DNA of 64,000 bases from Candidatus Margulisiibacteriota bacterium (lineage in GTDB: Bacteria > Margulisbacteria > WOR-1 > O2-12-FULL-45-9): assembly GCA_034723395.1 (NCBI GenBank), contig JAYEOW010000024.1, forward strand, positions 22,205 to 86,204. Reading direction: 5' to 3'. This document shows, piece after piece, positions 27,052 through 46,103 of the stretch; the first letter of the stretch is position 1; the number at the start of each line of letters is the position of its first letter. Made by a program: the position numbers and the translations under genes. The notes under the pieces are model-generated. The model was not told where the DNA came from. It saw nothing but the letters and a program-made list of their open reading frames with translations, and did not search any database.

Positions 27052-27894
27052 CTATCCCCACTCTTTTAAATACTCCTTAAGCGCCGCTTTCCATCCCTGC
27101 ATCGGATTGATCTCCATCAGGTCTAATTTATAATTCCTCATCGCCTCGGACGCTGCCCGCGGAGCAGGAAGAGGAAAACGATCGGAGGTAACCGGCTTTA
27201 CCTTTGCTTTCGATCCTAATATCTTAACTATTTCTACTGCGATATCGTAACGGGTGCAGGAACCGCTGTTTACCAAATGATAAAGACCGTAATTCCCAGT
27301 TTTAACGATCTTCTTTATACCGCTGACCAGGTCCCGGGCAAAGGTCGGACTCCCATATTTGTCATCTACCGCTTCCAGCTTATCCCTTGTTTTAAGCAGT
27401 TCAACAATCTTACCCACAAACTTTTTATCCCGCTTTGGCCCTCCGCCGATCATCCATCCCGCTCTGAATATGCAATATTTATTTAAAAGGTCCTGGACGA
27501 TCTTCTCCCCTTCATATTTCGCTTTACTATATACATTCACTGGATCAGGGGTGTCGAATTCAGTATGGATCTGCTTTTCTTTACCGTTAAATACACCGCC
27601 GGTGCTGATATAAACCATCTCCGCGTTAAACTTTTGGCACGCAAGCGCAACATTATAAGTGCCGATCGTGTTCGTCTTATAAGCGTGGTCCACCTCGCTT
27701 TCGCAGGCGTCGACATTGGTCTCCGCCGCGAGATGCAGGACCAGCGATGGTTTATTCTCCGCTACTGCCGCAAAAACCAGCTTCTTATCCCTGATATCCA
27801 TTTCGGGGACATCGGTTAAAACCAGTTTTTCGTCCGCAAATACATCCTGAACATACGAACCTACCATCCCTTTTGCTCCGGTAACTAAGATCAT
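27052..27894 (-). CDS. rfbD: dTDP-4-dehydrorhamnose reductase family protein
   Basis: VTGAKGMVG, HLAA.TNVD.CE, YS.AK..GE, GSPT, A.R. Confidence 0.8.
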   Translation of the reverse strand: MILVTGAKGMVGSYVQDVFADEKLVLTDVPEMDIRDKKLVFAAVAENKPSLVLHLAAETNVDACESEVDHAYKTNTIGTYNVALACQKFNAEMVYISTGGVFNGKEKQIHTEFDTPDPVNVYSKAKYEGEKIVQDLLNKYCIFRAGWMIGGGPKRDKKFVGKIVELLKTRDKLEAVDDKYGSPTFARDLVSGIKKIVKTGNYGLYHLVNSGSCTRYDIAVEIVKILGSKAKVKPVTSDRFPLPAPRAASEAMRNYKLDLMEINPMQGWKAALKEYLKEWG

Positions 27895-28805
27895 CTTATT
27901 TTCTCCTTTCCTAACATCGTTTTTAACGTTATCTTCGCGACCTTAATATATAAAGAAATAAACAATGGATCTGCCTTAAATGACTTCCATAAATATTTCA
28001 AAAACGGTTTTCTTAAACAAAATCGGTAATATGCCCAGTTATAATAAATGTTCGCTTTCGTTCTTCTAAAACGAAACCAGTCGGAGAGTTTTCTCTTCTC
28101 AAGCCGGCAATAATGGTCATCTATAATATTAATTACGCTTTGGAACATCTCTTCCCTGCTTGAATTCGTAAAATTATTTTCATGCAGCGTATAGCCGCCC
28201 AGTATCTCCGGAATAAAATGGAAAAGATGGCCGGCCTTTGCCGCCCTTAACCACAGGTCATAATCTTCACAAAGATAGGTTAACTTGCTTTCAGAGAAAT
28301 ACCCTACGTCCTCCATTATCTTTTTCTTAAAAGTTACGGCCGGAGTTGACAATAAATTTCCGGAATAAAGCAGCGCACGGTGCATATCTTTCGCTCCAGG
28401 GCCATTTTTCCGTATCCCAGATATCTCTCCATCTTTATGGTCGTGTAGATCGTGGCTGATGATTGCTATGTCCGGATGGTTCTTAAATGCTTGTATCGTT
28501 ATTTCAAGCTTATCTGAATACCAGATATCATCCTGATCGAGGATCGCAATAACCTCACCGGATGCCTGCCTGACCCCGCTATTTCTAGCCCCACCCAATC
28601 CTTTATTTTTCTGTTCAATATAAACAAAGTCCGTCTCTTGATGCTTCTCCATATATTCATTAACTACTTCTCCAACATTATCCGGCGATTCATCGTTCAC
28701 CAGAATGATCTCGTAATCTTTGTAGGTTTGCGCCAAAACACTATCGAGCGTTCGCTCAATCAGTTTTGCCCCGTTATATAAAGGTATGATCACTGATACT
28801 TTCAT
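27891..28805 (-). CDS. GT2 glycosyltransferase
   Basis: VSVIIPLYN, VND.S.D, ARN.G, LDQDD.W, EDYDLWLR. Start at ATG 28805, overlapping the upstream stop. Confidence 0.92.
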   Translation of the reverse strand: MKVSVIIPLYNGAKLIERTLDSVLAQTYKDYEIILVNDESPDNVGEVVNEYMEKHQETDFVYIEQKNKGLGGARNSGVRQASGEVIAILDQDDIWYSDKLEITIQAFKNHPDIAIISHDLHDHKDGEISGIRKNGPGAKDMHRALLYSGNLLSTPAVTFKKKIMEDVGYFSESKLTYLCEDYDLWLRAAKAGHLFHFIPEILGGYTLHENNFTNSSREEMFQSVINIIDDHYCRLEKRKLSDWFRFRRTKANIYYNWAYYRFCLRKPFLKYLWKSFKADPLFISLYIKVAKITLKTMLGKEKIR

Positions 28806-30601
28806 AAAAATACCGCTAAACTTTCTTCGTTGACCGGGGAGAAGCATTGGGCAATTAATTCTCTCCCCTTTTCACGCAGTTTTATCTCCTTTGCTTGATC
28901 GATGCTTTTTATTTTCTCAATCTCTGCCGCGATCTCTTCCGTAGTTCGGGCGGTAAACTGAAAATCGTCTTTGGAGAACCAGTCCATCGGATCGAGGCTG
29001 ATATCAAGATCGCTACGCACTCTTATCACAGGCACCCCCCACGCCAAAGCATCAAATATCGTAGCAGAAGCAGTAGCTATCAACATTGTCGCATTTGGCA
29101 AAACGTCGCTCATTCCTCCGCCAACAAGCTCATATTCATCTGTTTTTAAACCGGCTAAATTTATTATTTCACTAAGATCTTCTTTGGCCATCATTGGATG
29201 CGGTTTGAGCACCAGCTTCATATGCTTGGTATTCCTAAGTGCTGACCAGCTCTTTGAAAGAAGTTCCAGCGCGTTCGGTTTCGCTAGCGGAAGGGTGATT
29301 AAAACAGTATTTTGGGGCCTATCCCCTCTCCCATATTGTCTTATTAGATATTGGAAACGCAGAGCCGGGCCATCGACTAAACACTCTGAGGAAAATCCTT
29401 CTTTAGATAAAATCTCTCTAAAATAACTGCCGGAGCAAATAATCTTATTCGGTGTCGGCAGCACACCCGCCTCATTTTTTGAGGCATAACAGCTTAGAAG
29501 TAATGGAAACAGAGAGGCGTGCTGAAAACCTAGTATAGTAGCATCCGGCAAGTATTTTTCTGCTCCTAGAAGAATCGGCTTCTCAGGAAACATATTTTCA
29601 AAAGTGATAATGATACGTTCGATTTTAACTCCCTTTTCGCTCAGCCTTTCCATTAAATAGTAATGCATCACAACCTCAAAAGCCGATCCGCCGGCAAATG
29701 CAGTTCTTCTCGCCTCTTCCCGGTAGATCAGCCCAAGTTCGTGCCCTTGAAAAACGAAAGATCCCTTGAAAAATGTCAGCGACCGAAACATAACATATAG
29801 TCCCTTAAAATAATCGGTAATTCGATAATAATCGTCCGCAATAATAAAGTTTTCCTTTGCCTGCCTGAGCCAAGCAAAAGTCTCTCTGATCGACCGCCTT
29901 AAATTGTAAAATATCGGGAGAATAGCGACCGTTTCCCCTTTTCCCCTTAATTCACCAGCTAAATTAGCAAAATAACTATCCTTAAATTCCCCGTTTTGGC
30001 TTAAATGTTTATCTCCAATCCAGGTCCTTAGAATAGTTAACGGTTTATTATCACTAATTGATGGTTTTCGCGCCCATAACTTTCTGGTAAAAGCTTGTTT
30101 AAGCGACAAAAAGAATCGTGCTGCCGCACGCAAATATGATTTAAAAGCATTAGTCTTATATAGTTTTATATTTTTATATCCATTGAATAGATCAGACCTT
30201 GATATGGTCTCTAATACCGCCGTGCTCTCCGAAAAGATGCAGACATTTTTCCCGGAAAGTTCCTTTTTTAACCGATTCACAACTTCAAGATAACAAATAT
30301 AAAGATACACCGGGCTGTCCATCACATTTTTTTCCGCTATCTTTGAGCACCACCATGCCAATGAGTTAAAGCAGACGCTCAACTCTCCGACGTAATCCAA
30401 ATAAGACCGCCGCAGGTCATTGGCCGCATCTTCTAACAACGAACCAATTTCTACATAGTGCCAATTAGCGGGAGCTTGGTTTTTTAATTCTAAAAGCCGC
30501 TTATAATCCCTTCCTAAAAAAACCCAGTAATGGTGTTCACTGAATTCCCTTTTAGCGGGAAAACCTTTGTCAGCCTGAATTAATCTAATCGTATTAGGCA
30601 T
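28802..30601 (-). CDS. uncharacterised glycan biosynthesis protein, candidate CMP-ulosonate transferase
   Basis: FEN..PEK, GFQH, G..RF, LKPHP, SAT.FDA...G.PV give a GT-B-like C-terminal pattern; directly after kdsB. Confidence 0.5.
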   Translation of the reverse strand: MPNTIRLIQADKGFPAKREFSEHHYWVFLGRDYKRLLELKNQAPANWHYVEIGSLLEDAANDLRRSYLDYVGELSVCFNSLAWWCSKIAEKNVMDSPVYLYICYLEVVNRLKKELSGKNVCIFSESTAVLETISRSDLFNGYKNIKLYKTNAFKSYLRAAARFFLSLKQAFTRKLWARKPSISDNKPLTILRTWIGDKHLSQNGEFKDSYFANLAGELRGKGETVAILPIFYNLRRSIRETFAWLRQAKENFIIADDYYRITDYFKGLYVMFRSLTFFKGSFVFQGHELGLIYREEARRTAFAGGSAFEVVMHYYLMERLSEKGVKIERIIITFENMFPEKPILLGAEKYLPDATILGFQHASLFPLLLSCYASKNEAGVLPTPNKIICSGSYFREILSKEGFSSECLVDGPALRFQYLIRQYGRGDRPQNTVLITLPLAKPNALELLSKSWSALRNTKHMKLVLKPHPMMAKEDLSEIINLAGLKTDEYELVGGGMSDVLPNATMLIATASATIFDALAWGVPVIRVRSDLDISLDPMDWFSKDDFQFTARTTEEIAAEIEKIKSIDQAKEIKLREKGRELIAQCFSPVNEESLAVFL

Positions 30602-31331
30602 ATAAGCTTTTGGTTTTATCCTTTTTCATTAGATCTACAACTATTTCCAGATCGGCCGGTGTATCTACGCTGATCTTCGCTCCCTCAATCTTAACCGCTT
30701 TCATCTTCACCCCGTGCTCTAAAACCCGTAAATATTCGTTATACTCGATAGTTTCTAAGGGAGTCGGTTCCCATGAGGTATATTTGAGCAAAAACTCCTT
30801 ACGAAACGGAACAATAAAGCACATTTTTAACAGTCCATTAACCGGTGTCCGCGCATCACTAGGCAGATCGGTTCTTGAACAGTAAAGAATATTTCCATTC
30901 AGGTCTAATACTGCTTTTATATCTGAATGACTATTCTTACCAGCATACGGAGTAACCCCAACCGAAATCTGGATATTTTGATCTTTCTTTAGTGGTGCAA
31001 CGATTTGATTAATATGTTCTGGATCAACTAACGGTTCATCTCCCTGGATATTTACTACGATGTCGCAATCGACTTTCTGGGACGCTTCGGCTAAACGGTC
31101 GGACCCGGTTTTATGATGATTTCCAGTCATGATTACTTTTATTCCATGCTTTTCACCGGCACTTTTAATTTTTTCATTATCGGTCACCAAATAAACCTCA
31201 TCTAAAGCCTCCGCTAACAAAGAACGCTTACAAGTGTGGATCACCATCGGCAATCCTTCGATCTCAATCAATGCTTTGCCGGGTAAACGGCTCGACTCTA
31301 ATCTTGCCGGAACCATTCCTACAGTTTTCAT
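30594..31331 (-). CDS. kdsB: 3-deoxy-manno-octulosonate cytidylyltransferase family
   Basis: PARL.SSRLPGK.L..I.G.PM, TGSDR.AE, VNIQGDEP, LE.IE..E.LR.LE.G, SVDTP.DL. Confidence 0.88.
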   Translation of the reverse strand: MKTVGMVPARLESSRLPGKALIEIEGLPMVIHTCKRSLLAEALDEVYLVTDNEKIKSAGEKHGIKVIMTGNHHKTGSDRLAEASQKVDCDIVVNIQGDEPLVDPEHINQIVAPLKKDQNIQISVGVTPYAGKNSHSDIKAVLDLNGNILYCSRTDLPSDARTPVNGLLKMCFIVPFRKEFLLKYTSWEPTPLETIEYNEYLRVLEHGVKMKAVKIEGAKISVDTPADLEIVVDLMKKDKTKSLYA

Positions 31332-31332
31332 C

Positions 31333-32100
31333 TTAAGATTTAAACTCCTTGATCGTATGCTTAAAGCTGCGGCACAATTCAGTCGCATCCAAAGAGTATG
31401 TTATAAATTGGATCCCGATCTCTTTGAACCAGCGAAGCTGTTCCATGCTTGCGGTAAAAGCACCGGCCGCCTTGTTCTTGGTTCTAACCTTTTTTACACA
31501 TTCCTCAACATATTCCTTTAGTTTTGGGCTCTCCAGCTCTCCAGGGATCCCCAACGCTTGGGATAGATCACATAAACCGAAATAGACCACGTCAATATTT
31601 TCGTCATCAATGATCGCGTCGATATTTTTAACTCCCTGCTCTCCCTCTACAATTAAAATAGTCATCGTTTCATCATTTTCTTTTCTAGTATGCTCATCGG
31701 TCTTTTCGGGAGCATATCCAGCGGCGCGAGTAAACGGAGAGAATCCTCTCTCCCCGATTGGCGCATACTTCATCCCCTTGATCGCCAGTTTTCTCTGCTC
31801 AACCGATTCGATATGCGGAACCACAATCCCGTGTGCTCCGATATCCAATCCGCGCAGTATTTCCGCTTCATCATTGCGGGGAACGCGAATAATCGGAGTG
31901 CAATCTTCCAATTCCGCGGCACGCACCATATCTTCGGCAGTCTCATAGCTGATAGGACCATGCTCCATATCAATGACCACAAAATCCAATCCGGCGGCTC
32001 CTAAAACATTAACTGCTGAAGCGGACGGGAGGATACACCAGGTTCCCAGCACGGATTCCCCTTCTTTTAACATCCGCTTTAATTTATTTAGTTTTCTCAT
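31333..32100 (-). CDS. HpcH/HpaI-family class II pyruvate aldolase
   Basis: GLDFVVIDMEHG, RVP, LDIGAHGIVVP, Y.P.G.RG, G..DLSQ.LG.PG. Confidence 0.88.
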   Translation of the reverse strand: MRKLNKLKRMLKEGESVLGTWCILPSASAVNVLGAAGLDFVVIDMEHGPISYETAEDMVRAAELEDCTPIIRVPRNDEAEILRGLDIGAHGIVVPHIESVEQRKLAIKGMKYAPIGERGFSPFTRAAGYAPEKTDEHTRKENDETMTILIVEGEQGVKNIDAIIDDENIDVVYFGLCDLSQALGIPGELESPKLKEYVEECVKKVRTKNKAAGAFTASMEQLRWFKEIGIQFITYSLDATELCRSFKHTIKEFKS

Positions 32101-32111
32101 CGTTTACTCCT

Positions 32112-32867
32112 TTAGACCACCTTTATTTGTGATACATCATCAATCACGTAGTTAGTCAGATTTTGTAGTTGTTCTCTCGGCGTTATCCCGGAACAGACCG
32201 CGATACTAGCTTTAACTTTGGCGTTATTCCCCATTTTAATATCAGTTTCAGCATCACCCACCATGACCATCCGATTCTTAGCAATTTTAAGCTCTTGCGA
32301 GATCAAATCGATCATATCCGGAGCAGGTTTTGAGAGCTCAACTCCATCTGCTCCGATTACAAATGACATCTTTTCGGAAAGCCCAAGAAAATCCATCGAA
32401 AGTTTAGCCCTTTCTGTTTTATCAGTCGTTGCGATCGCCGTTTTACATCCTTTGGCATGTAAAGTATCGATCAAGTCGTATGTCCCATCGATTACTTTTA
32501 TAAGGGTGTCCAGCATATCTCTTGATATTTCATCAACCTTACTAAATGCTTCAAGACAAGCCGTTCGCCCGTCTTTTATCCCAAACTGATGCAGATAATC
32601 GATTGCCGCCTGCATAACCACCTCGCGCTTTTTAATTCCGACCGGTCCTTCCGAACGCAGTTTTTTGTTCTCTAAATCTACCCCCATCTCAAACATCATC
32701 TTTTGCCTATGATCCCCGTCCAAATTGAACTTTTCGCAGATCAACTCTGCCCTTTTGCCAATCATTTGCGACCAGTAATGGTAGAGATCAATCAGTGTAC
32801 CGTCGCGATCGAAGATCACCAGATCAATATCTTTTATTACCTGACCATTAACTTTAATATCAGCCAC
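32112..32867 (-). CDS. HAD-superfamily phosphatase
   Basis: IFDRDGTLID, KP.PD, MVGD..TDI.MG. Confidence 0.88.
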   Translation of the reverse strand: MADIKVNGQVIKDIDLVIFDRDGTLIDLYHYWSQMIGKRAELICEKFNLDGDHRQKMMFEMGVDLENKKLRSEGPVGIKKREVVMQAAIDYLHQFGIKDGRTACLEAFSKVDEISRDMLDTLIKVIDGTYDLIDTLHAKGCKTAIATTDKTERAKLSMDFLGLSEKMSFVIGADGVELSKPAPDMIDLISQELKIAKNRMVMVGDAETDIKMGNNAKVKASIAVCSGITPREQLQNLTNYVIDDVSQIKVV

Positions 32868-33864
32868 GGATGTCCTCCAGGTTTTCTTTCACTAATTTCT
32901 CCGCAACCGTAACTGCTTTACCGATCAGATCGAGATCGTTCTCAAAATTATCCTTATTAATATAATCTGCGACTAATTTACGCGCAAAAGTACCGATCGA
33001 AACCCCATTAATGTCTACGCCGCACAACTTTGCCAGATTTCCGGTTTTACTATTCGTTCCTCCCGAAGCTAGGATCATCACTGGCACATTGCTTTTCCGC
33101 ACGATATCCGAAATAGCGATCGTTTGCAGAGTTGTATTATAATCGTCTTTACCACCGCTCATCGGTACTCCATCCGCTTGCACGATCATTCGCTCACCCG
33201 TGATCTCATACGCGGCTTTGATCCTCCTGATCACTTCGGTATCGGACAACTGCGATCGGTCAAGACACATGCTTATATAATTATCAGCAAGAAACTTGTT
33301 AACTAGTTTCCAGTCTGCCATTACCGATTCCTCATCGGGGATAATTGCATGGAGTTCAAATGTTTCCGTTCCGTTCGCCAGGCAATCGGGCAGGATCTTT
33401 TTCAATTCATTCCTCTTATCGAAGAAACTAACCGCATTAGCCGGACATACGCGGCCGCATTCGCCGCAGCCGATACAGCGTTTCTCGATTACTTGAAAAT
33501 CATTGGTAATCGCCTTTTGCAGGCAATATTCAAGACAGCTACCGCAAGAGGAACAAATATCAGCGTCTATTTTTGCCTTCCGGATATGCGGATCCCCCCG
33601 CATCCCGATACTTACATTAATAAATGGCCTGGTTTTAAGCTTTTTACCAAGCTTAGGCGCTAATTCAAAAGCTTTATTAACTCCCAGCACCGAATTCTTA
33701 ACCACATCTACGTTTGCTGATACATCGATCCCTAGTGCTCCTGCGAGTGTATATACCAGAGAGAGCTTTCGTACTTCGTCAGCATCCTCGTTACCCGCGC
33801 CGCAAACGATCTTAAAATACTCTCGATCCCTCAATATCTGCCTTAATTCTTCAAATCTGCTCAT
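32860..33864 (-). CDS. LdpA-like iron-sulfur protein (two 4Fe-4S)
   Basis: FKIVCGA...L.LVYTLAGA..IDV.A, DPH.RKA, CxxCxxCxxxC and CIGCGECGRVCP, QADG.PMSG, GGTN match the cyanobacterial LdpA pattern. Confidence 0.75.
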   Translation of the reverse strand: MSRFEELRQILRDREYFKIVCGAGNEDADEVRKLSLVYTLAGALGIDVSANVDVVKNSVLGVNKAFELAPKLGKKLKTRPFINVSIGMRGDPHIRKAKIDADICSSCGSCLEYCLQKAITNDFQVIEKRCIGCGECGRVCPANAVSFFDKRNELKKILPDCLANGTETFELHAIIPDEESVMADWKLVNKFLADNYISMCLDRSQLSDTEVIRRIKAAYEITGERMIVQADGVPMSGGKDDYNTTLQTIAISDIVRKSNVPVMILASGGTNSKTGNLAKLCGVDINGVSIGTFARKLVADYINKDNFENDLDLIGKAVTVAEKLVKENLEDIRG

Positions 33865-35579
33865 ATGTAATTCTTCATCCCCTTATAAAATTCCTTGTAA
33901 TTCGTTGGGGTTAGGATATGCAACCCTTCTCCTCCACGGTTTTCCAAATATTGATTGATCTCTTTTAAATAGCGAAGATTCCAGTTATGCTTTTCTTTAA
34001 TATCTTCAAGTTTTTCCGCCTCGTTGGCCTCATTATAGAAATGGTGAATCCCATCTTTTGACGTCCCCATATATCCATCCATCCCCGCGATAAATACTCT
34101 TTCTCCGCCCATTACTAACGCTAAACCAGCCAAAAGAACAGAAACCGTCCTGCAGCTTGATGAAATAATCCCATTTTCGATATTAAATGGATTTTCTAAA
34201 GAATCTTCATAATAAATAATTTCGTAATCACGGTTAACATATTCTCTGATCATCTCTTCTGAAATATGCTGACCAATTAACAATTTTGATTCAGGACTTA
34301 CTTTATCGACATAATCTGTAAATCGCCTTTTATTAGTAAAAGCATGATAATGTGGAACGAATAATCCCCCGAGATAATTTCCTCCCAAGACTATCGGATC
34401 GTACTTCTTTATAAATGCTAAGATCTTATCCTGGTTTTCTTTTAAGCTGGGACCGTTGGCCAGGACTAAAAAGTCCCGTCTTTTATAGCGATTAATATAC
34501 GGAACATCAATTTTTTTATCGTTTACATTTTCATCTTTTTTGACACCCGATATTGTTTTAACTTTCTTACCAAACAACCCTTTTCTTAAAACATCTTCAA
34601 TCAGCTCTTTATTGAATCCTACCGGATTGTTCATTTTAATGACTTCAAATATATTCCAGATATCTTCGATATCGTACTCTTTGCGGTCAACCAGGTTTTT
34701 AGCGTATGTCGGATGGCAGCCATAAGTGCCGGAAAGCATGTACGGGAGGTTATATCCCCAGTTAAACTTTTTGTGCAGATCGGTATAATAATGATCGATG
34801 ATATTTAGAACCGGTATAACGTTATAGCGATCCGGATCTTGATGGTGCAGATAAGCGAGCATGATCTCGGTCGGGAGGTTCCCCGCACCACGCCCCATCC
34901 CAAAGATCGAACCATCAACTATCCTCGCCCCGGCATCGATCGCAGCTAAAGAATTAGCAAAGGCCATCTGCAGGTTATTATGCGGATGAAAGCCCCATTT
35001 AATATGTTTTATTTCTAATAACGGCTTATAGAAATCGGCAAGCTGATTAGGGAACATCGATCCGTACGAATCGGCAACGTAAGCATAATCCAGTGGAAGA
35101 TCTTTAAGGATCGACAAGAGCTCCTGCTTTTCTTTATCTGAATAAGCAGAAAAGCCCATCAGATTGACTGAGGTTTTTAATCCAAGCTCTTTTATTTTTG
35201 CCGTATCAATTAAAGCATCCCTTAATTTATCTTTATGAAATGCAACTCTGATCAGATCAACCGGGGTCTCCTGGTATTGTTTAAGGTCCTCCAGATCGTA
35301 TTTGCCATGGTCGACCATTAAAGCAACCTTTGAACCGTCAATTCCTTTGGTTGCCGCTAGAATCTCATCGGCAGAGCTAAAGCGGTAAGCTCCGAATTTA
35401 TCTTTATTAAAATACTTTTCTGTGCCGTGATAACCCAGCTCAACATAGTCCACTCCCGCTTTGGAGAGCGCCCGGTAAGTCTCGCGGACCAGTTTCTTAT
35501 CAAAATCCCAATTATTCACATATCCGCCGTCACGGATCGTGCAATCGAGGATTTCCAGATTATGCGGCTTCTTTTGCAT
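33861..35579 (-). CDS. DRE-TIM (HMGL/DmpG-like) aldolase fused to a Maf/DUF115-like domain
   Basis: LDCTIRDGGY.N.W.F, DSYGS, GFH.HNN.Q.AFAN, GMGRGAGN.PTE; C-terminal LVLANGPSL and IAGMDGY. Confidence 0.75.
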   Translation of the reverse strand: MQKKPHNLEILDCTIRDGGYVNNWDFDKKLVRETYRALSKAGVDYVELGYHGTEKYFNKDKFGAYRFSSADEILAATKGIDGSKVALMVDHGKYDLEDLKQYQETPVDLIRVAFHKDKLRDALIDTAKIKELGLKTSVNLMGFSAYSDKEKQELLSILKDLPLDYAYVADSYGSMFPNQLADFYKPLLEIKHIKWGFHPHNNLQMAFANSLAAIDAGARIVDGSIFGMGRGAGNLPTEIMLAYLHHQDPDRYNVIPVLNIIDHYYTDLHKKFNWGYNLPYMLSGTYGCHPTYAKNLVDRKEYDIEDIWNIFEVIKMNNPVGFNKELIEDVLRKGLFGKKVKTISGVKKDENVNDKKIDVPYINRYKRRDFLVLANGPSLKENQDKILAFIKKYDPIVLGGNYLGGLFVPHYHAFTNKRRFTDYVDKVSPESKLLIGQHISEEMIREYVNRDYEIIYYEDSLENPFNIENGIISSSCRTVSVLLAGLALVMGGERVFIAGMDGYMGTSKDGIHHFYNEANEAEKLEDIKEKHNWNLRYLKEINQYLENRGGEGLHILTPTNYKEFYKGMKNYI

Positions 35580-37401
35580 ATCCAACCCCTTCCTTTTCAG
35601 TATTTTTTATCTGCGTATTATATAGACTCCAATAGTGTCTGCCTTTTTCCATTAACTCTTCGTGGTTTCCTGATTCGATCACTTTCCCCTTATCAAGCAC
35701 GATAATCTTATCTGCATTAATGATCGTACTTAAGCGATGGGCAATAACAATTAAGGTATGGTCTTTGGATAATGCATTGATTGTCTGCTGAATTATCTTT
35801 TCTGAAACGTTATCTAAGGCGCTGGTCGCCTCGTCAAAGATAAGGATCTCTGGCTTGCGATAGATCGCCCGGGCAATCGCGATCCGCTGGCGCTGCCCGC
35901 CCGATATCTTCATCCCCCGGTCACCGACAACCGTATTATATCCATCCGGAAATTCAGAAATAAACTCGTGGGCATGCGCTACTTTAGCAGCTTCAACCAC
36001 CTCATCCATTTTCTCAGCGGTATCTCCGCCAAAAGTAATGTTTTCTGCAATGGTTGCATTAAAAATAAATGTATCCTGGGTAACGAATCCGATCTTTTTC
36101 AACCAGGACGATATCCTGCTAATATTTAACTCAATACCATCAATTAATATTTTCCCGTCCTGCGGCACAAATACCCTGACGATCAAATCCGCAATGGTAG
36201 ATTTTCCTGCACCGGAAGAACCAACGATCGCAGTCGTCTCCCCCTTCTTGAAGATCGAATTAATTTTATTAATGACCCTATCCCTTCCCGGATAAGAAAA
36301 ACTGACGTTTTCAAAACGGATCCCTTCTGAAAATGATTTAATCTCTTTTTCACCATCTTTTATCTTGTTTGAATCTTCATGCAAAACGTAGTAAAGCAAT
36401 TCTAAAGTGGGCAAAATCCCCATAAACTGGATCCTAAAATTACCCAAGATCGCCATTGAAGGAGTCACTTTTTGGAACGCATAAGCAAAAACTCCTAAAA
36501 TCGGCAGTAGGCTCATATAGCTGGTTGGCAGCAATAATTTCACTACAATCAGCAATACTGCCAATAATATAACCGAGAGTGATTCCAACAATACTTTAGG
36601 AAGGTTTTTCCAGATAACATCTCTTCGGGCGAGGTTAAAATATTGCTTCATCGCTTTGACGAATTCGGTTACCCACCGATTTTGTGAATTATATACTTTG
36701 ATCTGCCGGATCCCGCTTACACTTTCATTGGCTAAAACATTCATCCGCTCCCCGGCATATATTCGCCCCTTCCCTAAATTATAAGATATGTTGGTAGCGA
36801 TGTATTTTGTTAAATAATAATACAATCCTCCGATAACGATAATTCCGATCGAGGCATACATATGAATGTTAAGTAGAACCAGCCCAACGACCGCCAATCT
36901 TACTATTTCGGTAAGCATACGCGGAATATAGTCAAATATCGCGCCCGCCGATGAAGGAGCCGATATTATCCGATAGATCAGCTCTCCCTGTTTATGATCA
37001 AGAAAAAATTGATAATCAGCACTGATGTATTTATTAAAGATCCCTTTCTGCGTGTCTGCCCAAATATGATAAGCAGCAAACATCCCGTAGATCACGTTCC
37101 AGTAAGCAAATACACCTTTTAAGACAACAGATAATATTAAAAGTACCGCAGATGCAACCATCTTATCCTGGATCGGAACGATCCCGATCAGGCCTTCTGT
37201 GAATTTTATAAAACTACCTCCGACCGTACCGGTCATCCCGGACGGCAGCATTTCACTTAATACGGTAAAGAGAATCGCCAGATTCAATCCGTCAAAGACT
37301 GAAGCCAAAAATGCCAATAGGATGATCCCAAGCACGTATACCGGATGCTGTCTGATAAAATACCAGATGATCTGAAACTTTGTAATGCTGTTATTCTTCA
37401 A
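35560..37401 (-). CDS. ABC transporter permease/ATPase, PglK/MsbA-like glycan flippase
   Basis: 6 TM segments plus GSSGAGKST, ISGGQRQRIAIARA, DEATSALD, AHRLST. Confidence 0.85.
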   Translation of the reverse strand: MKNNSITKFQIIWYFIRQHPVYVLGIILLAFLASVFDGLNLAILFTVLSEMLPSGMTGTVGGSFIKFTEGLIGIVPIQDKMVASAVLLILSVVLKGVFAYWNVIYGMFAAYHIWADTQKGIFNKYISADYQFFLDHKQGELIYRIISAPSSAGAIFDYIPRMLTEIVRLAVVGLVLLNIHMYASIGIIVIGGLYYYLTKYIATNISYNLGKGRIYAGERMNVLANESVSGIRQIKVYNSQNRWVTEFVKAMKQYFNLARRDVIWKNLPKVLLESLSVILLAVLLIVVKLLLPTSYMSLLPILGVFAYAFQKVTPSMAILGNFRIQFMGILPTLELLYYVLHEDSNKIKDGEKEIKSFSEGIRFENVSFSYPGRDRVINKINSIFKKGETTAIVGSSGAGKSTIADLIVRVFVPQDGKILIDGIELNISRISSWLKKIGFVTQDTFIFNATIAENITFGGDTAEKMDEVVEAAKVAHAHEFISEFPDGYNTVVGDRGMKISGGQRQRIAIARAIYRKPEILIFDEATSALDNVSEKIIQQTINALSKDHTLIVIAHRLSTIINADKIIVLDKGKVIESGNHEELMEKGRHYWSLYNTQIKNTEKEGVGYAKEAA

Positions 37402-37405
37402 TATC

Positions 37406-38776
37406 TCATGCTCCTTTTCTTTCCAGTGTTTTCAATGACTCTAATATCCTCCGGGAATATGACCTCTCATCATGATAAACAATATGCGCCAAGCTATCTT
37501 TTATCTTTTGCCTAATGCCCTTTTCCTGGGAGATCTTCAATACCTTGTTGATCTCTTCCAAAAATCTATCCTTTTCTTTGCATTCTACAAACCACGGAAA
37601 TTTCTTTAAATACGTAAAATGTTCTCTTTTTGACATTTCCTGCACAGAATTTGGGCCCGCATGTACACCATCGCTGCATGCCAATCCTAATATTAGATTG
37701 CCAAAAAGGCCCGCCTCGACCATTACCGAAGAGAACGGTGAAATGATGAAGTCAATCGCATTATACAGATCGAGGAAATTACGCAGGTCCGGGATGTATC
37801 CGCTCTTATGATTCAGGTACGCTCCCCGCATCTCCCCGTCAAAAGTGACGTTTTCGAACTTGCAATCAAAAAACGACTTTTCCTTTATTCTGGCATCGCG
37901 CTCCGGATGCGGCCGGTATATCACATGAGCATCCTTTAACAATCCCCTGGCGATCAGATCATCGAGCATTATAAGGAAGGAGGTTTCATCGAAGGGACGC
38001 AACGATCCCCCCAGTAGAATGACCACTTTATCCGCCGGAATACCCAGCCTGCCGAGGTATTCCTTCCTTTTCTTTTCGCGGTCGGTTTTCTTCTGAAATT
38101 CATAATACATTTCGTAATGGGGCACCCCTATACGGAAAATTCTTTCTCTCTTCAGCCCGAAGATCTTCTCACATATATCCTTATTCTGCGTTCCCCTCTC
38201 CAAAATAACGTCCGGCGGCAGGTAAAGGAAAAGCTTGCTACTGGCGTTATCCCATCCGGTGGGAATTACGACGCTTAAAATACCCAGTTCCCTGCATATT
38301 TTGATCAGGTCGATCCCGATATTCCCCGGCGTGGCAATGGGGATGATCATATATTTAAGGCCCAGAGGCTTTAGTTTTTCTTTCAATTCTTTGTCCAACG
38401 GGATCATCTTTTCGGCCAAATATACCAATACTCTATAAATATAATCGTTAAACAATAGCCGGTACAAATAATATTTTTTCCGTGGTCGGCCGTCCGGCGC
38501 AAAATAACCCCGCGCATAAGTGGAAGAATGCTTTGCCGCCCTAGCAACGAACAACTTAACCAAATATTTCCTGATCTTATCTTTAAAGCGGCTTAATTTT
38601 GGATCGTACGTTATCGTTTTCCCCTGGAGCAATCCCAGAATCTTGTCGTTCCTGGAATTATTCTCCAGCAAATAATAAACGTCATATTCCCCCTCTAGGG
38701 CGGCAAAGGCCTTCGTCTGGACATATTTCTTATAGATCTCCTCTCCAGACAGATATATCAGTATTTTATTTTTCAT
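37406..38776 (-). CDS. uncharacterised GT-B-like protein, candidate CMP-ulosonate transferase
   Basis: GWDN.SSK, G.PHY, YRPHP, SS..VEA...G; directly after a NeuA-family gene. Confidence 0.5.
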   Translation of the reverse strand: MKNKILIYLSGEEIYKKYVQTKAFAALEGEYDVYYLLENNSRNDKILGLLQGKTITYDPKLSRFKDKIRKYLVKLFVARAAKHSSTYARGYFAPDGRPRKKYYLYRLLFNDYIYRVLVYLAEKMIPLDKELKEKLKPLGLKYMIIPIATPGNIGIDLIKICRELGILSVVIPTGWDNASSKLFLYLPPDVILERGTQNKDICEKIFGLKRERIFRIGVPHYEMYYEFQKKTDREKKRKEYLGRLGIPADKVVILLGGSLRPFDETSFLIMLDDLIARGLLKDAHVIYRPHPERDARIKEKSFFDCKFENVTFDGEMRGAYLNHKSGYIPDLRNFLDLYNAIDFIISPFSSVMVEAGLFGNLILGLACSDGVHAGPNSVQEMSKREHFTYLKKFPWFVECKEKDRFLEEINKVLKISQEKGIRQKIKDSLAHIVYHDERSYSRRILESLKTLERKGA

Positions 38777-39528
38777 GCGCTCTCCGGCATAGGGAACGGT
38801 TTTTTATCGATCTGCGGCAGATGCGCTTCGCCGTTTTTTAGCATAATATCCGCCAGGGCCCAATCTCTTTCATAATCGATCACAAAACCTTCTTCTTTAC
38901 TGGTGAGAAACGGTGCGATTATCTTTCCCTCTCTTGAATTATGCTCCCAAACCACTCGGACCCAGGCTATCTCCAGCGAGCTATTTTGTACGTGAACTTT
39001 GGGCAGCGCTTGATATTGGCCCGCATGCCAAGGTTTCTCCAGGTGCGATTGGTCCAATAATGGCCTCATCCTGTTCCCTTCAAGAACCCACATTTTACCC
39101 GGATGTTGTGAACAAAGCTCAACTGCACGCAAAGAATCTATCCCCTCATTGCCCACAAATTCTTTCCAGGCCCGCTTTACAGTTTCCACCGTGCGGAACG
39201 GGCTGGTCGGCCGGATAATACTAAATGCTCCATCTTTTATATCGAGCTCGGTCAATGCATGTTTTATCCATTCGATCCCCGGAGAGGTTGCCGTTGCGTA
39301 CTCAGCCGGCCGCAGAAAAGGCGCTTCTGCCCCATAATAAAGCGCGATCTCTCTAAATAACTCGGAATCAGTAGATACGATCACCCGATCAAAAAGATTG
39401 CTTTGGATCGCAGTTTGAATAGAATAAGCAATTAGCGGATGTCCGCCCAGATAGCGGATATTTTTATTTTTTACCCGCTGCGATCCCGCACGTGCAGGAA
39501 TTAATGCAACTACTTTACTCTTTTTCAT
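38773..39528 (-). CDS. acylneuraminate cytidylyltransferase family (NeuA-like)
   Basis: LIPAR.GS.RV.NKNI..L.GHPLIAY, VSTDS, PFLRP, RPTSPFR. Confidence 0.9.
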   Translation of the reverse strand: MKKSKVVALIPARAGSQRVKNKNIRYLGGHPLIAYSIQTAIQSNLFDRVIVSTDSELFREIALYYGAEAPFLRPAEYATATSPGIEWIKHALTELDIKDGAFSIIRPTSPFRTVETVKRAWKEFVGNEGIDSLRAVELCSQHPGKMWVLEGNRMRPLLDQSHLEKPWHAGQYQALPKVHVQNSSLEIAWVRVVWEHNSREGKIIAPFLTSKEEGFVIDYERDWALADIMLKNGEAHLPQIDKKPFPMPESA

Positions 39529-40436
39529 CCATTTTCCCTACTTTCTATCATTTCGATCATACTTTTTATTACAGGAGAATTAAGTCCATACTTTTCACCG
39601 GTCCTAACCACCGCTCCGGCGATCGCATCGATCTCTGAAGGTCTCCCGGCCAAAACATCACGCTGCATCGAAGTACCTAAGGTCTCAGGCATTGAATCGA
39701 TCTTCTTCATCTCTGCAATCGGATCGATCGTTACTCCATCTTTCGCCGCAATCGATGCTCCTTCTTTAATGCTCCCCTCCAACTTTTCCCGCCAAGCACT
39801 ATCGCTGCGGATAAATCCAAGCATTTTTTTAGAAGCAGCCGTGGTACAAGCAAGCGCATTAAGCCTAACTAATTTTCTCCAAACTACTTCTGCCTCTGAA
39901 CCTAAAACAGCAGCATCGATCCCGACCTCGGTTAAAATATTTTTAACTTCATCTGCTCCCGTTTTTTTTGCTAATTCGATCCTCACCGTTTTTGTAGTAT
40001 GTTGAATATGGTTGGCTGATATTCGTTTTAATTCAACATTCCCAATCGTTGCGGCAATTATCCGATCGCCAAAGATTGATCTTAAGTATTCATTATGTTC
40101 AATCCCGTTTAACAGCGGGACAATAACTGCATTCTTTGTTCGCTCTGGTTTTATCCGTTTTACCGCATTCTTTAGATAAGTAGCTTTGGTTGTGATAAAG
40201 ATAATATCAGCATCAGTATCAAGCTCACTGATAACTTTTGGCTTAACCGTAAAATCACCAAACACTTTACTCTCAAGCCTGATACCTTTTTCTTCAATCT
40301 CTTTGCCTGAGGTCTCTTCATCAATACAGACCACATTATAACCATACTTTATCAGCAAAGCCGTCAGGAAACCCCCTACCGCTCCCGGACCTAAAATCGC
40401 GATTGATATATCCTTATTTTTCCCAGGGATGGGCAC
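39525..40436 (-). CDS. ketopantoate reductase (PanE/ApbA) family 2-keto acid reductase
   Basis: GPGAVG, TTKA, LLNG, W.KL..LN, TSMQRD...GR.SEIDAI.G. GTG start after GAGGAGG. Confidence 0.85.
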   Translation of the reverse strand: MPIPGKNKDISIAILGPGAVGGFLTALLIKYGYNVVCIDEETSGKEIEEKGIRLESKVFGDFTVKPKVISELDTDADIIFITTKATYLKNAVKRIKPERTKNAVIVPLLNGIEHNEYLRSIFGDRIIAATIGNVELKRISANHIQHTTKTVRIELAKKTGADEVKNILTEVGIDAAVLGSEAEVVWRKLVRLNALACTTAASKKMLGFIRSDSAWREKLEGSIKEGASIAAKDGVTIDPIAEMKKIDSMPETLGTSMQRDVLAGRPSEIDAIAGAVVRTGEKYGLNSPVIKSMIEMIESRENG

Positions 40437-41589
40437 GAATAACCTCCTCATTCAGCTCTAATCCCCAGCCGGGTCGCTGAGGAACGGTCATATAGCCATC
40501 TCTGATCTCCGGAACTTCGGTCACGATCTCATCTTTCCAGGGGACATCATCAATATCCACTTCAAGGATCTTAAGATTTGGTATCGCCGCGCAAAACTGG
40601 GCGCTAATAAACGTGGAGAGATGGCTATAATAATTATGCGGAGTAACATTTATCTCATAAAGCTCTGCCATATCAGAAATCTTCTTCGACTGGATAAAAC
40701 CGTTCCAGATAATATCTATACTACAGACATCCATCGCATGTTTTTCCAGGTAAGGGCGATAATCTCTGGTTGTATATAGATTTTCACCGGAACAGATCGA
40801 AGTTCTGGCCGATTGTTTAATCTTCAACAACGCATTTGGATCGTAGGAGTCGATCTCCACCCAGAAAAGATTATATTTCTCTAACGCTTGGGCTATTTTA
40901 ATATACCCTTCGGTTTTAAAATTAAAATTCAGGTCGAGGATTATTCCAACATCATCTCCGGTCCCCCTGCGAAACGCGCTGATCTGTGAATTAATCGTGT
41001 CAATTATCTTATTGTTCACGTTAAGCTCAGGGCTGCCTAATCCACCCTTAAATCCAGGCATATAGACTGTTGGATTTTCTCCCGTAAAAATAATATTAGT
41101 TTTTAGCGCGGTAAACCCTCTGGTTTTAACTTCATTCCCCAACTTTTCTATATCGCCTAGTGTCTTTAATGGATCTTTACCGACCATCTGCCATGCTCTG
41201 GCTCTGGTTGTGCCGCAATGCGACCAATAGACTTGCACTTTGTCCCTGATCGGACCGCCAAACAGTTCATATACCGGAACTCCTAAAGCCTTCGCTTTAA
41301 TATCTAATAAAGCATTTTCTATGCCACCAATTGCCTTTTGGATAATACTTCCAGGACTTTGACGTGTTATCGAATACAAATCCCAGTATATTTTCTCTAC
41401 CGGCCGTGGATCTTTACCAATTAAGTGCTTTTTTAAATTCTCTATTACTCCTTTAATTCCTAATGGCGAACCATGCGAATCTGTACATTCACTGTAACCG
41501 ACAATACCTTCATCAGTTGTTATTTTAATAAATAACCAAGGTCTCCATCCAGCATCACACTGTAGTAACTCAACATCTTTTATTTTCAT
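40414..41589 (-). CDS. enolase-superfamily (mandelate racemase / acid-sugar dehydratase) enzyme
   Basis: TDEG.VG.SE, IGKDP, ENAL.DIK.KALG.PVY.LFGG, GENL, PHN, PG.G.E. Confidence 0.88.
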   Translation of the reverse strand: MKIKDVELLQCDAGWRPWLFIKITTDEGIVGYSECTDSHGSPLGIKGVIENLKKHLIGKDPRPVEKIYWDLYSITRQSPGSIIQKAIGGIENALLDIKAKALGVPVYELFGGPIRDKVQVYWSHCGTTRARAWQMVGKDPLKTLGDIEKLGNEVKTRGFTALKTNIIFTGENPTVYMPGFKGGLGSPELNVNNKIIDTINSQISAFRRGTGDDVGIILDLNFNFKTEGYIKIAQALEKYNLFWVEIDSYDPNALLKIKQSARTSICSGENLYTTRDYRPYLEKHAMDVCSIDIIWNGFIQSKKISDMAELYEINVTPHNYYSHLSTFISAQFCAAIPNLKILEVDIDDVPWKDEIVTEVPEIRDGYMTVPQRPGWGLELNEEVIRAHPWEK

Positions 41590-43366: not shown

Positions 43367-43376
43367 CAAATACTCC

Positions 43377-44834: not shown

Positions 44835-44845
44835 TATTTATCCTC

Positions 44846-46100: not shown

Positions 46101-46103
46101 TTT

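Follow-up and report, generated by a model that had tools for sequence, protein, structure and literature searches.

Six co-directional open reading frames occupy positions 28802-35585 on the minus strand of the window, as we call the 64,000-nucleotide stretch of a Candidatus Margulisiibacteriota contig analysed here (Table 1). A preliminary description had recognized six tightly coupled genes, which is borne out by the domain matches and by overlapping or near-abutting junctions throughout: the fusion and LdpA-like genes overlap by 4 nt (33861-33864), the LdpA-like and HAD genes by 8 nt (32860-32867) and the KdsB-like and TIGR04326-like genes by 8 nt (30594-30601), with an 11-nt gap (32101-32111) between the HAD and HpcH genes. 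The HpcH and KdsB-like frames overlap by 56 nt as called, and a start of the latter at an internal Met near 31331 would probably remove this overlap. The outer boundary previously placed at 35579 does correspond to an ATG, but the reading frame begins two codons earlier with a TTG. The module is embedded in a variable, O-antigen-like surface-sugar cluster of about 51 kb. The adjoining ABC exporter (NF045513, 428 bits, under the cut-off of 725; PglK-like, 265 bits) is possibly a flippase for a lipid-linked glycan, and four other loci (L009, L020, L058, L106) have an ABC homologue upstream of the fusion gene as well. In two relatives (L104, L106), RmlD (68-71% identity) and GT2 (35-55%) genes adjoin the TIGR04326 gene.

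Table 1. Genes of the module and related features of the window
Feature	Coordinates	Strand	Matches or position
ABC exporter (HepA/MsbA/PglK-like)	35560-37401	-	NF045513, PglK-like; directly upstream of module
Aldolase-MptE/Maf/GT42-like fusion, 574 aa	33861-35585	-	Pfam and NCBIfam matches
LdpA-like protein, 334 aa	32860-33864	-	LdpA_C and 4Fe-4S families
HAD-IA hydrolase, 251 aa	32112-32867	-	Pfam HAD families
HpcH/HpaI-family class II pyruvate aldolase, 255 aa	31333-32100	-	PF03328
KdsB-like cytidylyltransferase	30594-31388 (probable start near 31331)	-	CTP_transf_3, TIGR00466
TIGR04326-like protein, 599 aa	28802-30601	-	weak TIGR04326
GT2 glycosyltransferase and RmlD-like reductase	27052-28847	-	Pfam; directly downstream of module
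PseF-like cytidylyltransferase	38773-39528		same window
KdsC-family phosphatase	45609-46100		10 kb upstream of module
Divergent NeuB (NeuB_1)	46104-47156		10 kb upstream of module

The first gene encodes an aldolase joined to a Maf/DUF115-like domain, as previously claimed, with HMGL-like and MptE-like matches in a single reading frame. The N-terminal domain (HMGL-like, residues 10-250, E 4.8e-27) carries the RDGGY and HPH motifs of DRE-TIM metal-dependent aldolases; its best PDB match is 3dxi, the N-domain of a putative Bacteroides aldolase (E 6.6e-50), followed by the DmpG/BphI 4-hydroxy-2-oxovalerate aldolases as the closest characterised structures. The domain remains under all NCBIfam aldolase cut-offs (137.4 vs 229 and 123.6 vs 286 bits). 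It retains the RD...HxH positions that we take to be the metal ligands of DmpG-type enzymes, whereas an invariant Tyr occupies what is presumably the position of the catalytic His of DmpG, which may mean a chemistry other than that of a straightforward pyruvate aldolase. Like DmpG/BphI with the dehydrogenase DmpF, the module's aldolase has a redox protein as its translationally coupled partner, namely the LdpA-like one; unlike them, it has no acylating dehydrogenase partner, lies in a biosynthetic context and is fused to a transferase-like domain.

The C-terminal domain is MptE-like (residues 364-503), with 34.3 bits against a cut-off of 34.6 in the full-length scan and 37.3 bits when scanned by itself. 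Its NGPS and GMDGY motifs (G-x-D-x-Y type), its profile matches to the sialyltransferases Cst-II and Cst-I (E 6e-4 to 6e-3) and its structural neighbours in the Atlas, which are MptE-like (TM 0.72-0.81) with some clusters carrying WaaZ_KDO_III, relate it to the GT42, Maf and WaaZ families, in keeping with the role in CMP-sugar transfer earlier suggested for the Maf-like part. PF01973 is matched by 15 of 18 such C-domains and CST-I by the other three. The similarity to GT42 is nevertheless weak (E about 1e-3), and the Cst-II His that we assume to be the catalytic base has no clearly conserved counterpart. Since the Pfam family of the domain includes a pterin diphosphokinase, a kinase role is possible. 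We know of no aldolase fusion in the GT42, Maf or WaaZ families. The architecture is nonetheless widespread: among the best 150 representatives at 50% identity, 102 have at least 480 aa and both domains, and 22 fusion homologues are strongly conserved in both.

The LdpA-like protein matches LdpA_C (45.3 bits, cut-off 22.2) and 4Fe-4S families. Its model (pLDDT 90) is a (beta/alpha)8 TIM barrel with a ferredoxin-like insertion bearing both CxxCxxCxxxC motifs of the translation, and the C-terminal region contains a conserved SGGTN / GxxAR segment. Fold matches are confined to generic phosphate-binding TIM barrels (Z 15-17.5), with a TM of about 0.5 to class II FBP aldolases. The cyanobacterial circadian protein LdpA likewise has LdpA_C and a pair of 4Fe-4S motifs, but the score against NF045992 is far lower than the cut-off (148.8 vs 450 bits), and the gene, found only beside the fusion gene, belongs to a sugar operon in a lineage that does not photosynthesize, a context that implies an enzymatic rather than a clock role. 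We propose a ferredoxin-linked enzyme that would tailor a sugar phosphate. The HAD-IA hydrolase (HAD families at 94 bits; FDRDGT motif of the DxDGT type) has PpaX and phosphoglycolate-phosphatase-like models as its nearest NCBIfam relatives, all under cut-off; from family and synteny it may be the phosphatase for a phosphorylated ulosonate. The HpcH protein (PF03328, 90.9 bits) aligns over residues 5-246 with PDB 4b5s (E 8.7e-36) and is far under the cut-offs of the equivalogs HpaI, GarL and RhmA.

The fifth gene does encode a CMP-Kdo synthetase homolog, as had been noted. It matches CTP_transf_3 (150.4 bits) and PDB 1gq9 (KpsU, E 1.6e-38), retains the QGDEP motif, narrowly exceeds the TIGR00466 kdsB cut-off (158.5 vs 155.2 bits) and exceeds one KdsB subfamily model (227.7 vs 193), while scoring 161.7 bits against a cut-off of 281 for the NF003948 equivalog. 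In place of KHVGIY it has KMCFIV, with Met and Val where the aligned E. coli KdsB has H181 and Y185; the KdsB genes in housekeeping context in two loci (L033, L035) have His and Tyr there. PMC12199768 describes Y185 as hydrogen-bonding the Kdo C5-OH and H181 as an active-site residue. The module's enzyme is a member of this family that, judged from its sequence, would activate an ulosonic acid with CMP. The TIGR04326-like protein is a candidate glycosyltransferase for the activated sugar: TIGR04326 is matched with just 53.3 bits (cut-off 250), the C-terminal part gives weak BFO_1060 glycosyltransferase and DUF6716 matches, a PDB search returned no sequence match, and the nearest named Atlas clusters, which provide a lead only, carry Capsule_synth (in 30-42% of their members) and Glyphos_transf. 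In seven loci (L008, L014, L015, L060, L104, L106, L107) a homologue comes after the cytidylyltransferase, and distant ones do so in L020 and L009. Synthesis and transfer may be united in one polypeptide, as was suggested, but the TIGR04326-like protein is a second transferase candidate.

KdsA and KdsD, reported missing from the module, were found neither in the window nor over cut-off in the whole 1.68-Mb genome (97.24% complete), where the best KdsD score is 32.1 vs 203.7 bits. The single KdsA-like match (134.9 bits, cut-off 314) was rejected as KdsA, being a DAHP synthase (NF006421, 513.8 bits, cut-off 335). The genome has no match to WaaA (PF04413), although LpxC is present (297.7 bits); likewise, none of five module- or fusion-bearing relatives has KdsA over cut-off or any WaaA match. 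Ten kilobases upstream of the module, and absent from the preliminary description, lie a KdsC-like phosphatase and a divergent NeuB. With the PseF-like enzyme they probably form a set of the Kdn/Neu5Ac-9-phosphate type, routes that employ a NeuB-type synthase, a KdsC-type phosphatase and a NeuA-type CMP-synthetase. Altogether there are three NeuB-type synthases in the window and, besides the module's own, two cytidylyltransferase genes, so that cross-talk inside the cluster is possible.

The gene set proved to be conserved together. The six-gene order is identical in three genomes (G109, G019, G011) and one metagenome locus (L008), and four further loci (L015, L060, L067, L020) hold all module genes, interrupted or with HpcH elsewhere; the set recurs in many uncultured bacteria and, by source names, archaea, which is not chance. 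Among 121 genomes of the phylum, the LdpA-like gene is present in five, adjacent to the fusion every time; exactly those five have the close KdsB clade (at least 57% identity), and nine have any fusion. The KdsB proteins of the metagenome loci are 53-76% identical to that of the window where LdpA is present, and at most 49% where it is missing. Neighbours within 6 kb were counted in 35 fusion-type loci. A CTP_transf_3-type cytidylyltransferase accompanies the fusion in 33, the exceptions being L018, which ends 435 nt after the fusion, and L025, and some loci, such as L012, consist of this pair only. NeuB is near the fusion in just one of the 35, which leaves the fusion as the sole candidate synthase for the cytidylyltransferase's substrate. 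Either a phosphatase (13 loci; HAD in 11, IMPase-like in 2) or a PfkB kinase (10 loci) joins the pair in 23, never both, implying phosphorylated intermediates. The kinases are KDG/KDGal-kinase-like, and in one relative the fusion and TIGR04326 genes are kept while KDG-kinase-like, SDR and NeuA-like genes replace those in the middle. The SDR scores 135.7-138.2 bits against KduD models, under their cut-offs (338.85-369) and below several generic SDR models; together with the kinases it provides leads to 2-keto-3-deoxy sugar acid intermediates. The invariant core is the fusion and the cytidylyltransferase. HpcH and the LdpA-like protein, previously listed as parts of the module, do not belong to this core and each occur in just 7 of the 35 loci; HpcH is an accessory member. 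The accessory genes come in at least three interchangeable sets, one of them being LdpA/HAD/HpcH together with the KdsB clade that matches it.

These data can be read in several ways. Near-identical fusions stand beside different cassettes and cytidylyltransferase clades (L058 vs L060; G065 vs L008, from a quick tree only), so the fusion may act at a late common step and not as a synthase. It could then tailor a sugar already linked to CMP, with a sialyltransferase-like domain that simply binds the CMP-sugar and a DRE-TIM domain that attaches a pyruvate-derived unit to the side chain or takes one off; the cytidylyltransferase would work ahead of the fusion and not after it. This would suit the family-wide fusion of a CMP-binding-type domain even beside separate transferases (TIGR04326-like; MptE-like, standalone, in 7 of 35 loci; polysialyltransferase-like in 4 of 35), the frequent B12-radical SAM genes nearby, and the TPP enzyme of L025, which we take to be of a side-chain-extending type. 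We consider it unlikely, as nothing else would make the sugar, given NeuB near one locus in 35 and no KdsA in six genomes, and two-gene loci such as L012 would be without a substrate source; nor do we know of a precedent for an aldolase acting on a CMP-sugar. In support of such tailoring, a preprint (bioRxiv 10.64898/2026.04.20.719630) reports CMP-linked ulosonic acids with extended carbon chains, their origin unexplained.

A route that makes Kdo itself, or a close epimer, without KdsA and supplies a lipid A core or a Kdo-containing polysaccharide would account for LpxC in a lineage where KdsA, KdsD and WaaA were not found, for the kdsB models exceeded, and for the Atlas neighbours of the TIGR04326-like protein (Capsule_synth) and of the C-domain (WaaZ_KDO_III), presumably both Kdo-transferase families. 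A lipid A core role would be general, though, whereas the LdpA/KdsB clade and the fusions are rare in the phylum; the replacement of H181 and Y185, the lack of a detectable arabinose-5-phosphate isomerase in the genome, the archaeal homologues and the location in a variable cluster also make this reading decidedly improbable. A third possibility is that the aldolases serve catabolism, perhaps by cleaving 2-keto-3-deoxy acids in the manner of the Entner-Doudoroff pathway, or have no link to their neighbours, and that the cytidylyltransferase belongs to a NeuB-type pathway of the same cluster; we regard this as very improbable indeed. HpcH and DmpG-type enzymes are classically catabolic, the KDG-kinase-like genes would fit, and NeuB-type synthases and a KdsC-like phosphatase are at hand in the window; but nearly all fusion loci have a cytidylyltransferase nearby and just one has a NeuB, no fewer than 102 separate clusters at 50% identity have the aldolase covalently joined to a glycosyltransferase-like domain, the junctions are tight all along the module, and across the 121 genomes the LdpA gene and the KdsB clade never occur apart from each other or from the fusion.

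A real, conserved and KdsA-free gene set, a Met/Val site and a transferase-like C-domain make a pyruvate-aldolase route to a non-Kdo CMP-ulosonic acid the best reading. The undescribed pyruvate-based route envisaged earlier is thus partly supported, as a probable route to an ulosonic acid, while nothing indicates an ulosaric (dicarboxylic) product; literature searches returned no description of this module or route. The canonical Kdo pathway proceeds through KdsD, KdsA, KdsC and KdsB to WaaA or KpsS/KpsC. The proposed order is alike in passing from a phosphorylated 3-deoxy-2-ulosonate through a phosphatase and a KdsB-family CMP-transferase to a transferase, but differs in its metal-dependent DRE-TIM aldolase instead of a PEP-dependent synthase, its HAD-IA instead of KdsC-type phosphatase, and its additional Fe-S TIM barrel and second aldolase. 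The three-step synthase, phosphatase and CMP-transferase cassette in glycan clusters is also that of the Kdn/Neu5Ac-9-phosphate routes, from which the module departs in having no NeuB-fold synthase and, as proposed, in using pyruvate and not PEP as carbon donor. Several points speak against this best reading. Pyruvate aldolases are reversible and mostly catabolic, a second pyruvate aldolase in one route has no explanation, and the kinase-bearing variants without a nearby phosphatase are not covered by a simple scheme; the aldolase scores under cut-off, the invariant Tyr, the generic fold matches of the LdpA-like protein, the near-identical fusions beside different cassettes and the possible cross-talk weigh on the same side.

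In the scheme that we favour, the fusion would act as the ulosonic acid synthase, its second domain binding the CMP-sugar or transferring it, and would join pyruvate and an aldose phosphate into a phosphorylated 2-keto-3-deoxy sugar acid. The LdpA-like barrel and HpcH might serve to prepare the aldehyde or else to modify the phosphorylated intermediate, the weakest step, likely yielding a less hydroxylated product; the HAD enzyme would remove the phosphate, and the KdsB-like enzyme would form the CMP-sugar. The TIGR04326-like protein, the sialyltransferase-like domain of the fusion or both would transfer it to a lipid-linked glycan built by the surrounding cluster, and the neighbouring ABC transporter would take part in its export. 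We give an even chance to the conclusion that the six genes form a self-contained cassette that makes, activates and attaches a non-Kdo 3-deoxy-2-ulosonic acid without a PEP-dependent synthase of the KdsA or NeuB kind.

The window carries a co-directional array of about 50 genes whose content, comprising a WecA-type initiating transferase, a Wzy-like polymerase, many glycosyltransferases, three NeuB-type synthases, aminotransferases, deacetylases and formyltransferases, identifies it as a very large surface-glycan cluster. Embedded in this array is a module of six genes with overlapping or near-abutting reading frames, which encode a fusion protein (an N-terminal DRE-TIM aldolase domain followed by a C-terminal MptE/Maf/GT42-like domain), an LdpA-like protein, a HAD protein, an HpcH aldolase, a KdsB-like cytidylyltransferase and a TIGR04326-like protein. 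The family assignments, based on Pfam- and NCBIfam-type matches, agree with those of the preliminary description, which had proposed for the KdsA-free module a pyruvate-based route to a non-Kdo ulosonic or ulosaric acid, possibly with synthesis and transfer in one polypeptide. The KdsA-free part of this proposal holds for the genome as a whole (G000; 1.68 Mb, estimated 97% complete): the sole KdsA-like match stays below its cut-off (134.9 bits against 314) and is identified by NF006421 as a DAHP synthase (513.8 against 335), no KdsD is found over cut-off, and WaaA has no match whatever, while LpxC is present. Likewise, none of five fusion-bearing relatives (G011, G019, G109, G065 and G072) has a KdsA over cut-off or any WaaA match. 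Lipid A may be built without a Kdo core in this lineage.

Location of the module, its surroundings and related loci (window positions unless a locus is named)
Feature	Position	Strand
Co-directional array	12707-63806	-
Six-gene module	28802-35585	-
TIGR04326-like protein (599 aa)	28802..30601	-
KdsB-like cytidylyltransferase	30594..31388	-
HpcH aldolase	31333..32100	-
HAD protein	32112..32867	-
LdpA-like protein	32860..33864	-
Fusion (574 aa)	33861..35585	-
Dehydratase set	37406-41589	-
Split-transketolase set	41586-47156	-
Deacetylase-formyltransferase set with PseI	47153-50256	-
NeuB-like and CTP_transf_3 fusion (592 aa)	51286-53064	-
Deacetylase-formyltransferase set with NeuB	61393-63806	-
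Exchanged cassette, L105 (G065:C2)	2968-10774	
B12-radical SAM, L015	12715-15634	
B12-radical SAM, L060	4455-5990	
B12-radical SAM, L020	2307-3743	
B12-radical SAM, L011, L016, L018, L009, L025		

Homologues of the fusion are numerous, with 1786 matches in a word-indexed search; among the best 120 of these, nearly all are 567–593 aa long with 53–88% identity, and one is a 486-aa partial sequence. Their source names include Saganbacteria/WOR-1, Scalindua, Omnitrophota, Parcubacteria and Euryarchaeota, and by such names the fusion also occurs in candidate phyla, anammox bacteria, archaea and gut-type loci. Since 102 of the best 150 representatives at 50% identity contain both domains and measure at least 480 aa, the fused architecture is common. 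A split form is seen at one locus (L022), where an MptE-like gene lies immediately upstream of an aldolase-only gene.

The genomic surroundings of these proteins were analyzed in 82 loci, gathered in part through an alignment-based metagenome scan, against which the window proteins were compared. Fusion-type loci (n = 35) were defined as those in which the best match begins by query residue 30 and extends at least to residue 420; the 45 other matches are aldolase-only relatives and were left out of the partner counts. Within 6 kb of the fusion (E ≤ 1e-5, query cover at least 50%), a CTP_transf_3-type cytidylyltransferase is encoded in 33 of the 35 loci, in 21 of them as the KdsB-like subset, and the two loci where it is missing are L018, which ends 435 nt past the fusion, and L025. 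On the basis of these counts, the fusion and a CMP-type cytidylyltransferase constitute an invariant unit. The other partners are a HAD protein (11/35), a PfkB kinase (10/35), LdpA-like, HpcH and standalone MptE-like proteins (7/35 each), a polysialyltransferase-like protein (4/35), an IMPase-like protein (2/35) and NeuB (1/35); a kinase and a phosphatase co-occur in none of the 35. B12-binding radical SAM enzymes, encoded by one or two genes, adjoin the module in 9/35 fusion loci and are absent from the window; in the organisms that have them, the sugar may be C-methylated or otherwise altered by these enzymes. The polysialyltransferase-like gene (PF07388) accompanies the fusion in distant gut- or marine-type loci (L068, L071, L075, L072), and in L072 the fusion has a BNR/sialidase-like neighbour, which hints at a polymer built from the acidic sugar and at a polymer-cleaving enzyme.

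Among the 121 genomes of the phylum that were searched, to which the absences reported here refer, a close full-length fusion (at least 60% identity) occurs only in G000, G109, G011, G065 and G019, and distant fusions in four further genomes. An LdpA-like gene was found in five of the 121 (G000, G011, G019, G109 and G072), always adjoining the fusion, and exactly the same five encode a KdsB-like protein with at least 57% identity to that of the window; in 15 other genomes of the phylum KdsB-like genes reach just 31–43%. The metagenome loci follow the same division, with KdsB-like identities to the window protein of 53–76% where LdpA is present and at most 49% where it is not. With the order of all six genes identical in G109, G019 and G011, the gene set delineated in the preliminary description proves to be a conserved one.

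A natural exchange of genes separates the components of this set. At the L105 locus of G065, the fusion (68% identity) and the TIGR04326-like gene (45%) are retained, and the place of LdpA, HAD, HpcH and KdsB is taken by genes for an SDR, an uncharacterised 237-aa protein, a PseF/NeuA-like cytidylyltransferase, a PfkB kinase resembling KDG/KDGal kinases and a GalE-like enzyme. In a quick tree, the G065 fusion is sister to the WOR-1 fusion that has the LdpA cassette (SH-aLRT 97), and L058, which lacks LdpA, stands beside L060, which has the LdpA cassette, on very short branches. On this evidence, LdpA, HAD, HpcH and the KdsB clade form a single cassette that can be exchanged, with the fusion and the transferase staying constant. 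That the alternative cassettes encode KDG-kinase-like enzymes suggests 2-keto-3-deoxy sugar acids as intermediates shared by all of them, and the KduD-like scores of the SDR in the exchanged cassette lend weaker support in the same direction.

The aldolase domain of the fusion has an HMGL-like Pfam match and the DRE-TIM fold, and the structure closest to it is 3dxi, an unpublished N-terminal domain from a putative Bacteroides aldolase, with pyruvate aldolases of the DmpG type coming next (Foldseek probability 1.00 for both). All NCBIfam aldolase models remain under cut-off, including those for DmpG/BphI (TIGR03217, 123.6 against 286; NF006049, 137.4 against 229). Residues D19, H200 and H202, which we take to be the Asp and two His metal ligands of DRE-TIM enzymes, are invariant in 22 fusion homologues, as is the Tyr that follows RDG-G in the RDGGY motif and presumably occupies the place of the DmpG catalytic His. 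No DmpF-like acylating aldehyde dehydrogenase is encoded next to the fusion. By these sequence characters, the domain is assigned to a distinct DRE-TIM subfamily. Most genomes of the class, among them 9 of the 10 belonging to the same family, encode a standalone paralogue of about 320 aa (37–43% identity), which was not found in G000 with the query used. At the two loci examined (L099, L103) its neighbours are of the housekeeping type (genes for an outer-membrane efflux protein, a MetH-like protein or NDK) and give no clue to function.

Since the fold search with the whole fusion was filled by TIM-barrel matches, the relatives of the C-terminal domain were established from a sequence profile and from the Atlas. 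The whole fusion scores 34.3 against PF01973 (gathering score 34.6) and the C-terminal domain alone 37.3; of 18 family members tested, 15 match PF01973 and three match CST-I (PF06002). The profile of the domain aligns with the Campylobacter jejuni sialyltransferases Cst-II and Cst-I at E-values of 6e-4 to 6e-3 across the G-x-D-x-Y motif; the conserved segments NGPS and GMDGY align with SGIDFY of Cst-II, and no clearly conserved equivalent of the catalytic His was identified. Its structural neighbours in the Atlas are MptE-like (TM 0.72–0.81); that some nearby Atlas clusters carry WaaZ_KDO_III is a lead only.

The KdsB-like protein scores just over the cut-off of one CMP-Kdo synthetase (KdsB) equivalog (TIGR00466, 158.5 against 155.2) and far under that of another (NF003948, 161.7 against 281), with subfamily models NF003952 at 227.7 against 193 and NF009905 at 247.9 against 255. 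Alignments with KpsU and 13 homologues show that the nucleotide and metal motifs PAR..S.R.PGK, QGDEP and the C-terminal VDT.DL are kept. Where Escherichia coli KdsB has H181 and Y185, the KdsB-like protein has Met and Val (KMCFIV against KHVGIY), the correspondence being placed by aligning with KpsU and by the H-x3-Y spacing; KpsU and two KdsB genes in a housekeeping context beside pyrG (L033, L035) have His and Tyr. In the E. coli enzyme, Y185 and Q98 hydrogen-bond the C5 hydroxyl of Kdo, H181 belongs to the active site, and 5-deoxy-Kdo does not serve as a substrate (PMC12199768). The Met/Val pair suggests a more hydrophobic pocket, which would suit a less hydroxylated sugar.

For the LdpA-like protein, the structure model (pLDDT 90) consists of a TIM barrel with a ferredoxin-like insert at residues ~95–150. 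No specific fold family is assigned to the barrel, since both Foldseek and VIA-align returned only generic phosphate-binding TIM barrels. The protein matches LdpA_C (PF12617, 45.3 against 22.2), does not reach the circadian LdpA equivalog NF045992 (148.8 against 450) and contains two 4Fe-4S motifs (CxxCxxCxxxC); eight Cys (24 sequences) and an SGGTN segment are invariant in its family. HpcH is placed by family PF03328 (90.9 against 25), without a substrate assignment, because the HpaI, GarL and RhmA equivalogs are far under cut-off; it matches 4b5s over residues 5–246 (E 8.7e-36). A phosphonate pathway, in which HpcH would be a PEP-mutase relative acting with the cytidylyltransferase, was rejected, as no PEP mutase in G000 passes the cut-off (26.1 bits against 31.5). 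The TIGR04326-like protein is only a distant relative of TIGR04326 (53.3 against 250), and a PDB sequence search returned no solved relative. As a lead only, its nearest named Atlas clusters carry Capsule_synth (30–42% of members) and Glyphos_transf; distant homologues follow the cytidylyltransferase in L020 (E 8e-11) and L009 (E 3e-11).

The synteny is most likely accommodated by a five-step scheme, which builds on the family memberships, the absence of Kdo genes, the gene linkage and the changed active-site residues observed here. The aldolase domain would join pyruvate to an aldose phosphate; LdpA-like and HpcH would prepare or tailor the intermediate, with a putative redox step; HAD would remove the phosphate; the KdsB-like enzyme would form the CMP-sugar; and the TIGR04326-like protein, the fused C-terminal domain, or both, would carry out the transfer. 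The logic parallels that of the Kdo and Kdn routes, from which the module departs by using a synthase of another superfamily and no PEP-dependent enzyme. Because NeuB is almost missing from the neighbourhood, and KdsA missing from all six genomes, no source other than the fusion is apparent for the substrate of the cytidylyltransferase. The main rival explanation, that the fusion tailors a sugar already linked to CMP, was retained because the CMP-binding-type domain is always fused, even when other transferase candidates are present; we nevertheless judge it unlikely. A more far-reaching reading is tentative and on balance doubtful: the module may represent a third, widespread route to ulosonic acids beside the KdsA- and NeuB-type PEP synthases, based on a DRE-TIM pyruvate aldolase fused to its own sialyltransferase-like domain, and coupled here to an LdpA-family Fe-S TIM barrel that would reductively tailor a sugar phosphate, the product being an unseen deoxy-ulosonic acid in the form of a CMP-sugar.

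Several other gene sets of the array were also noted. Just upstream of the module, an enolase-superfamily acid-sugar dehydratase (galactonate/mannonate-dehydratase-like, under cut-offs) is grouped with a ketopantoate-reductase-like enzyme, a PseF-like cytidylyltransferase and a TagF-like (Glyphos_transf) protein, a set possibly responsible for the synthesis and attachment of a further activated deoxy sugar acid or a hydroxy acid. Further upstream lie a transketolase split into separate genes for its N- and C-terminal halves, an SDR, an aldehyde dehydrogenase closest to 2,5-dioxovalerate/alpha-ketoglutarate-semialdehyde dehydrogenases, a KdsC-family phosphatase (TIGR01670, 109.3 against 106.95) and a NeuB homologue that reaches neither the NeuB nor the PseI cut-off, which together may constitute a Kdn-like 9-phosphate route; L015 has a comparable trio (cytidylyltransferase, phosphatase and NeuB) upstream of its module. 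In two further sets, a NeuB-type synthase (PseI, 473.7 bits, with PseG; NeuB, 480.7 bits) is accompanied by a PIG-L-type deacetylase and a formyltransferase, a gene content that resembles the Kuenenia cluster proposed in a preprint for nonulosonic acids with free or formylated amines (10.64898/2026.04.20.719630). Finally, one protein fuses a weak NeuB-like domain (61.8 bits with Pfam, 56 bits with the NeuB equivalog) to CTP_transf_3, and its synthase half may be degenerate.

To our knowledge, ulosonic acids (Kdo, sialic, pseudaminic and legionaminic acids) have so far been shown to arise only through PEP-dependent synthases of the KdsA or NeuB type, and genome mining for these sugars relies on the corresponding markers. 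No published description of the fusion, the module or the family identifiers was found in full-text searches of the literature outside subscription journals and supplements. A 2026 preprint (10.64898/2026.04.20.719630) describes ulosonic acids that are linked to CMP, have extended carbon chains and are assigned to no genes; it shows that unexplained CMP-ulosonic products exist and does not mention the module genes. If the proposed route is correct, an aldolase-based cassette would have been invisible to KdsA/NeuB mining even though at least 102 distinct clusters at 50% identity carry the fusion, and some of the unassigned CMP-linked keto acids seen by mass spectrometry, as reported in that preprint (10.64898/2026.04.20.719630), could be explained. 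The natural swap, in which the fusion and the transferase stay constant and the middle genes are exchanged, makes differences in product directly testable. For the LdpA-like Fe-S proteins, the route would provide an enzymatic context and, on the more far-reaching reading, the first enzymatic function for the LdpA family.
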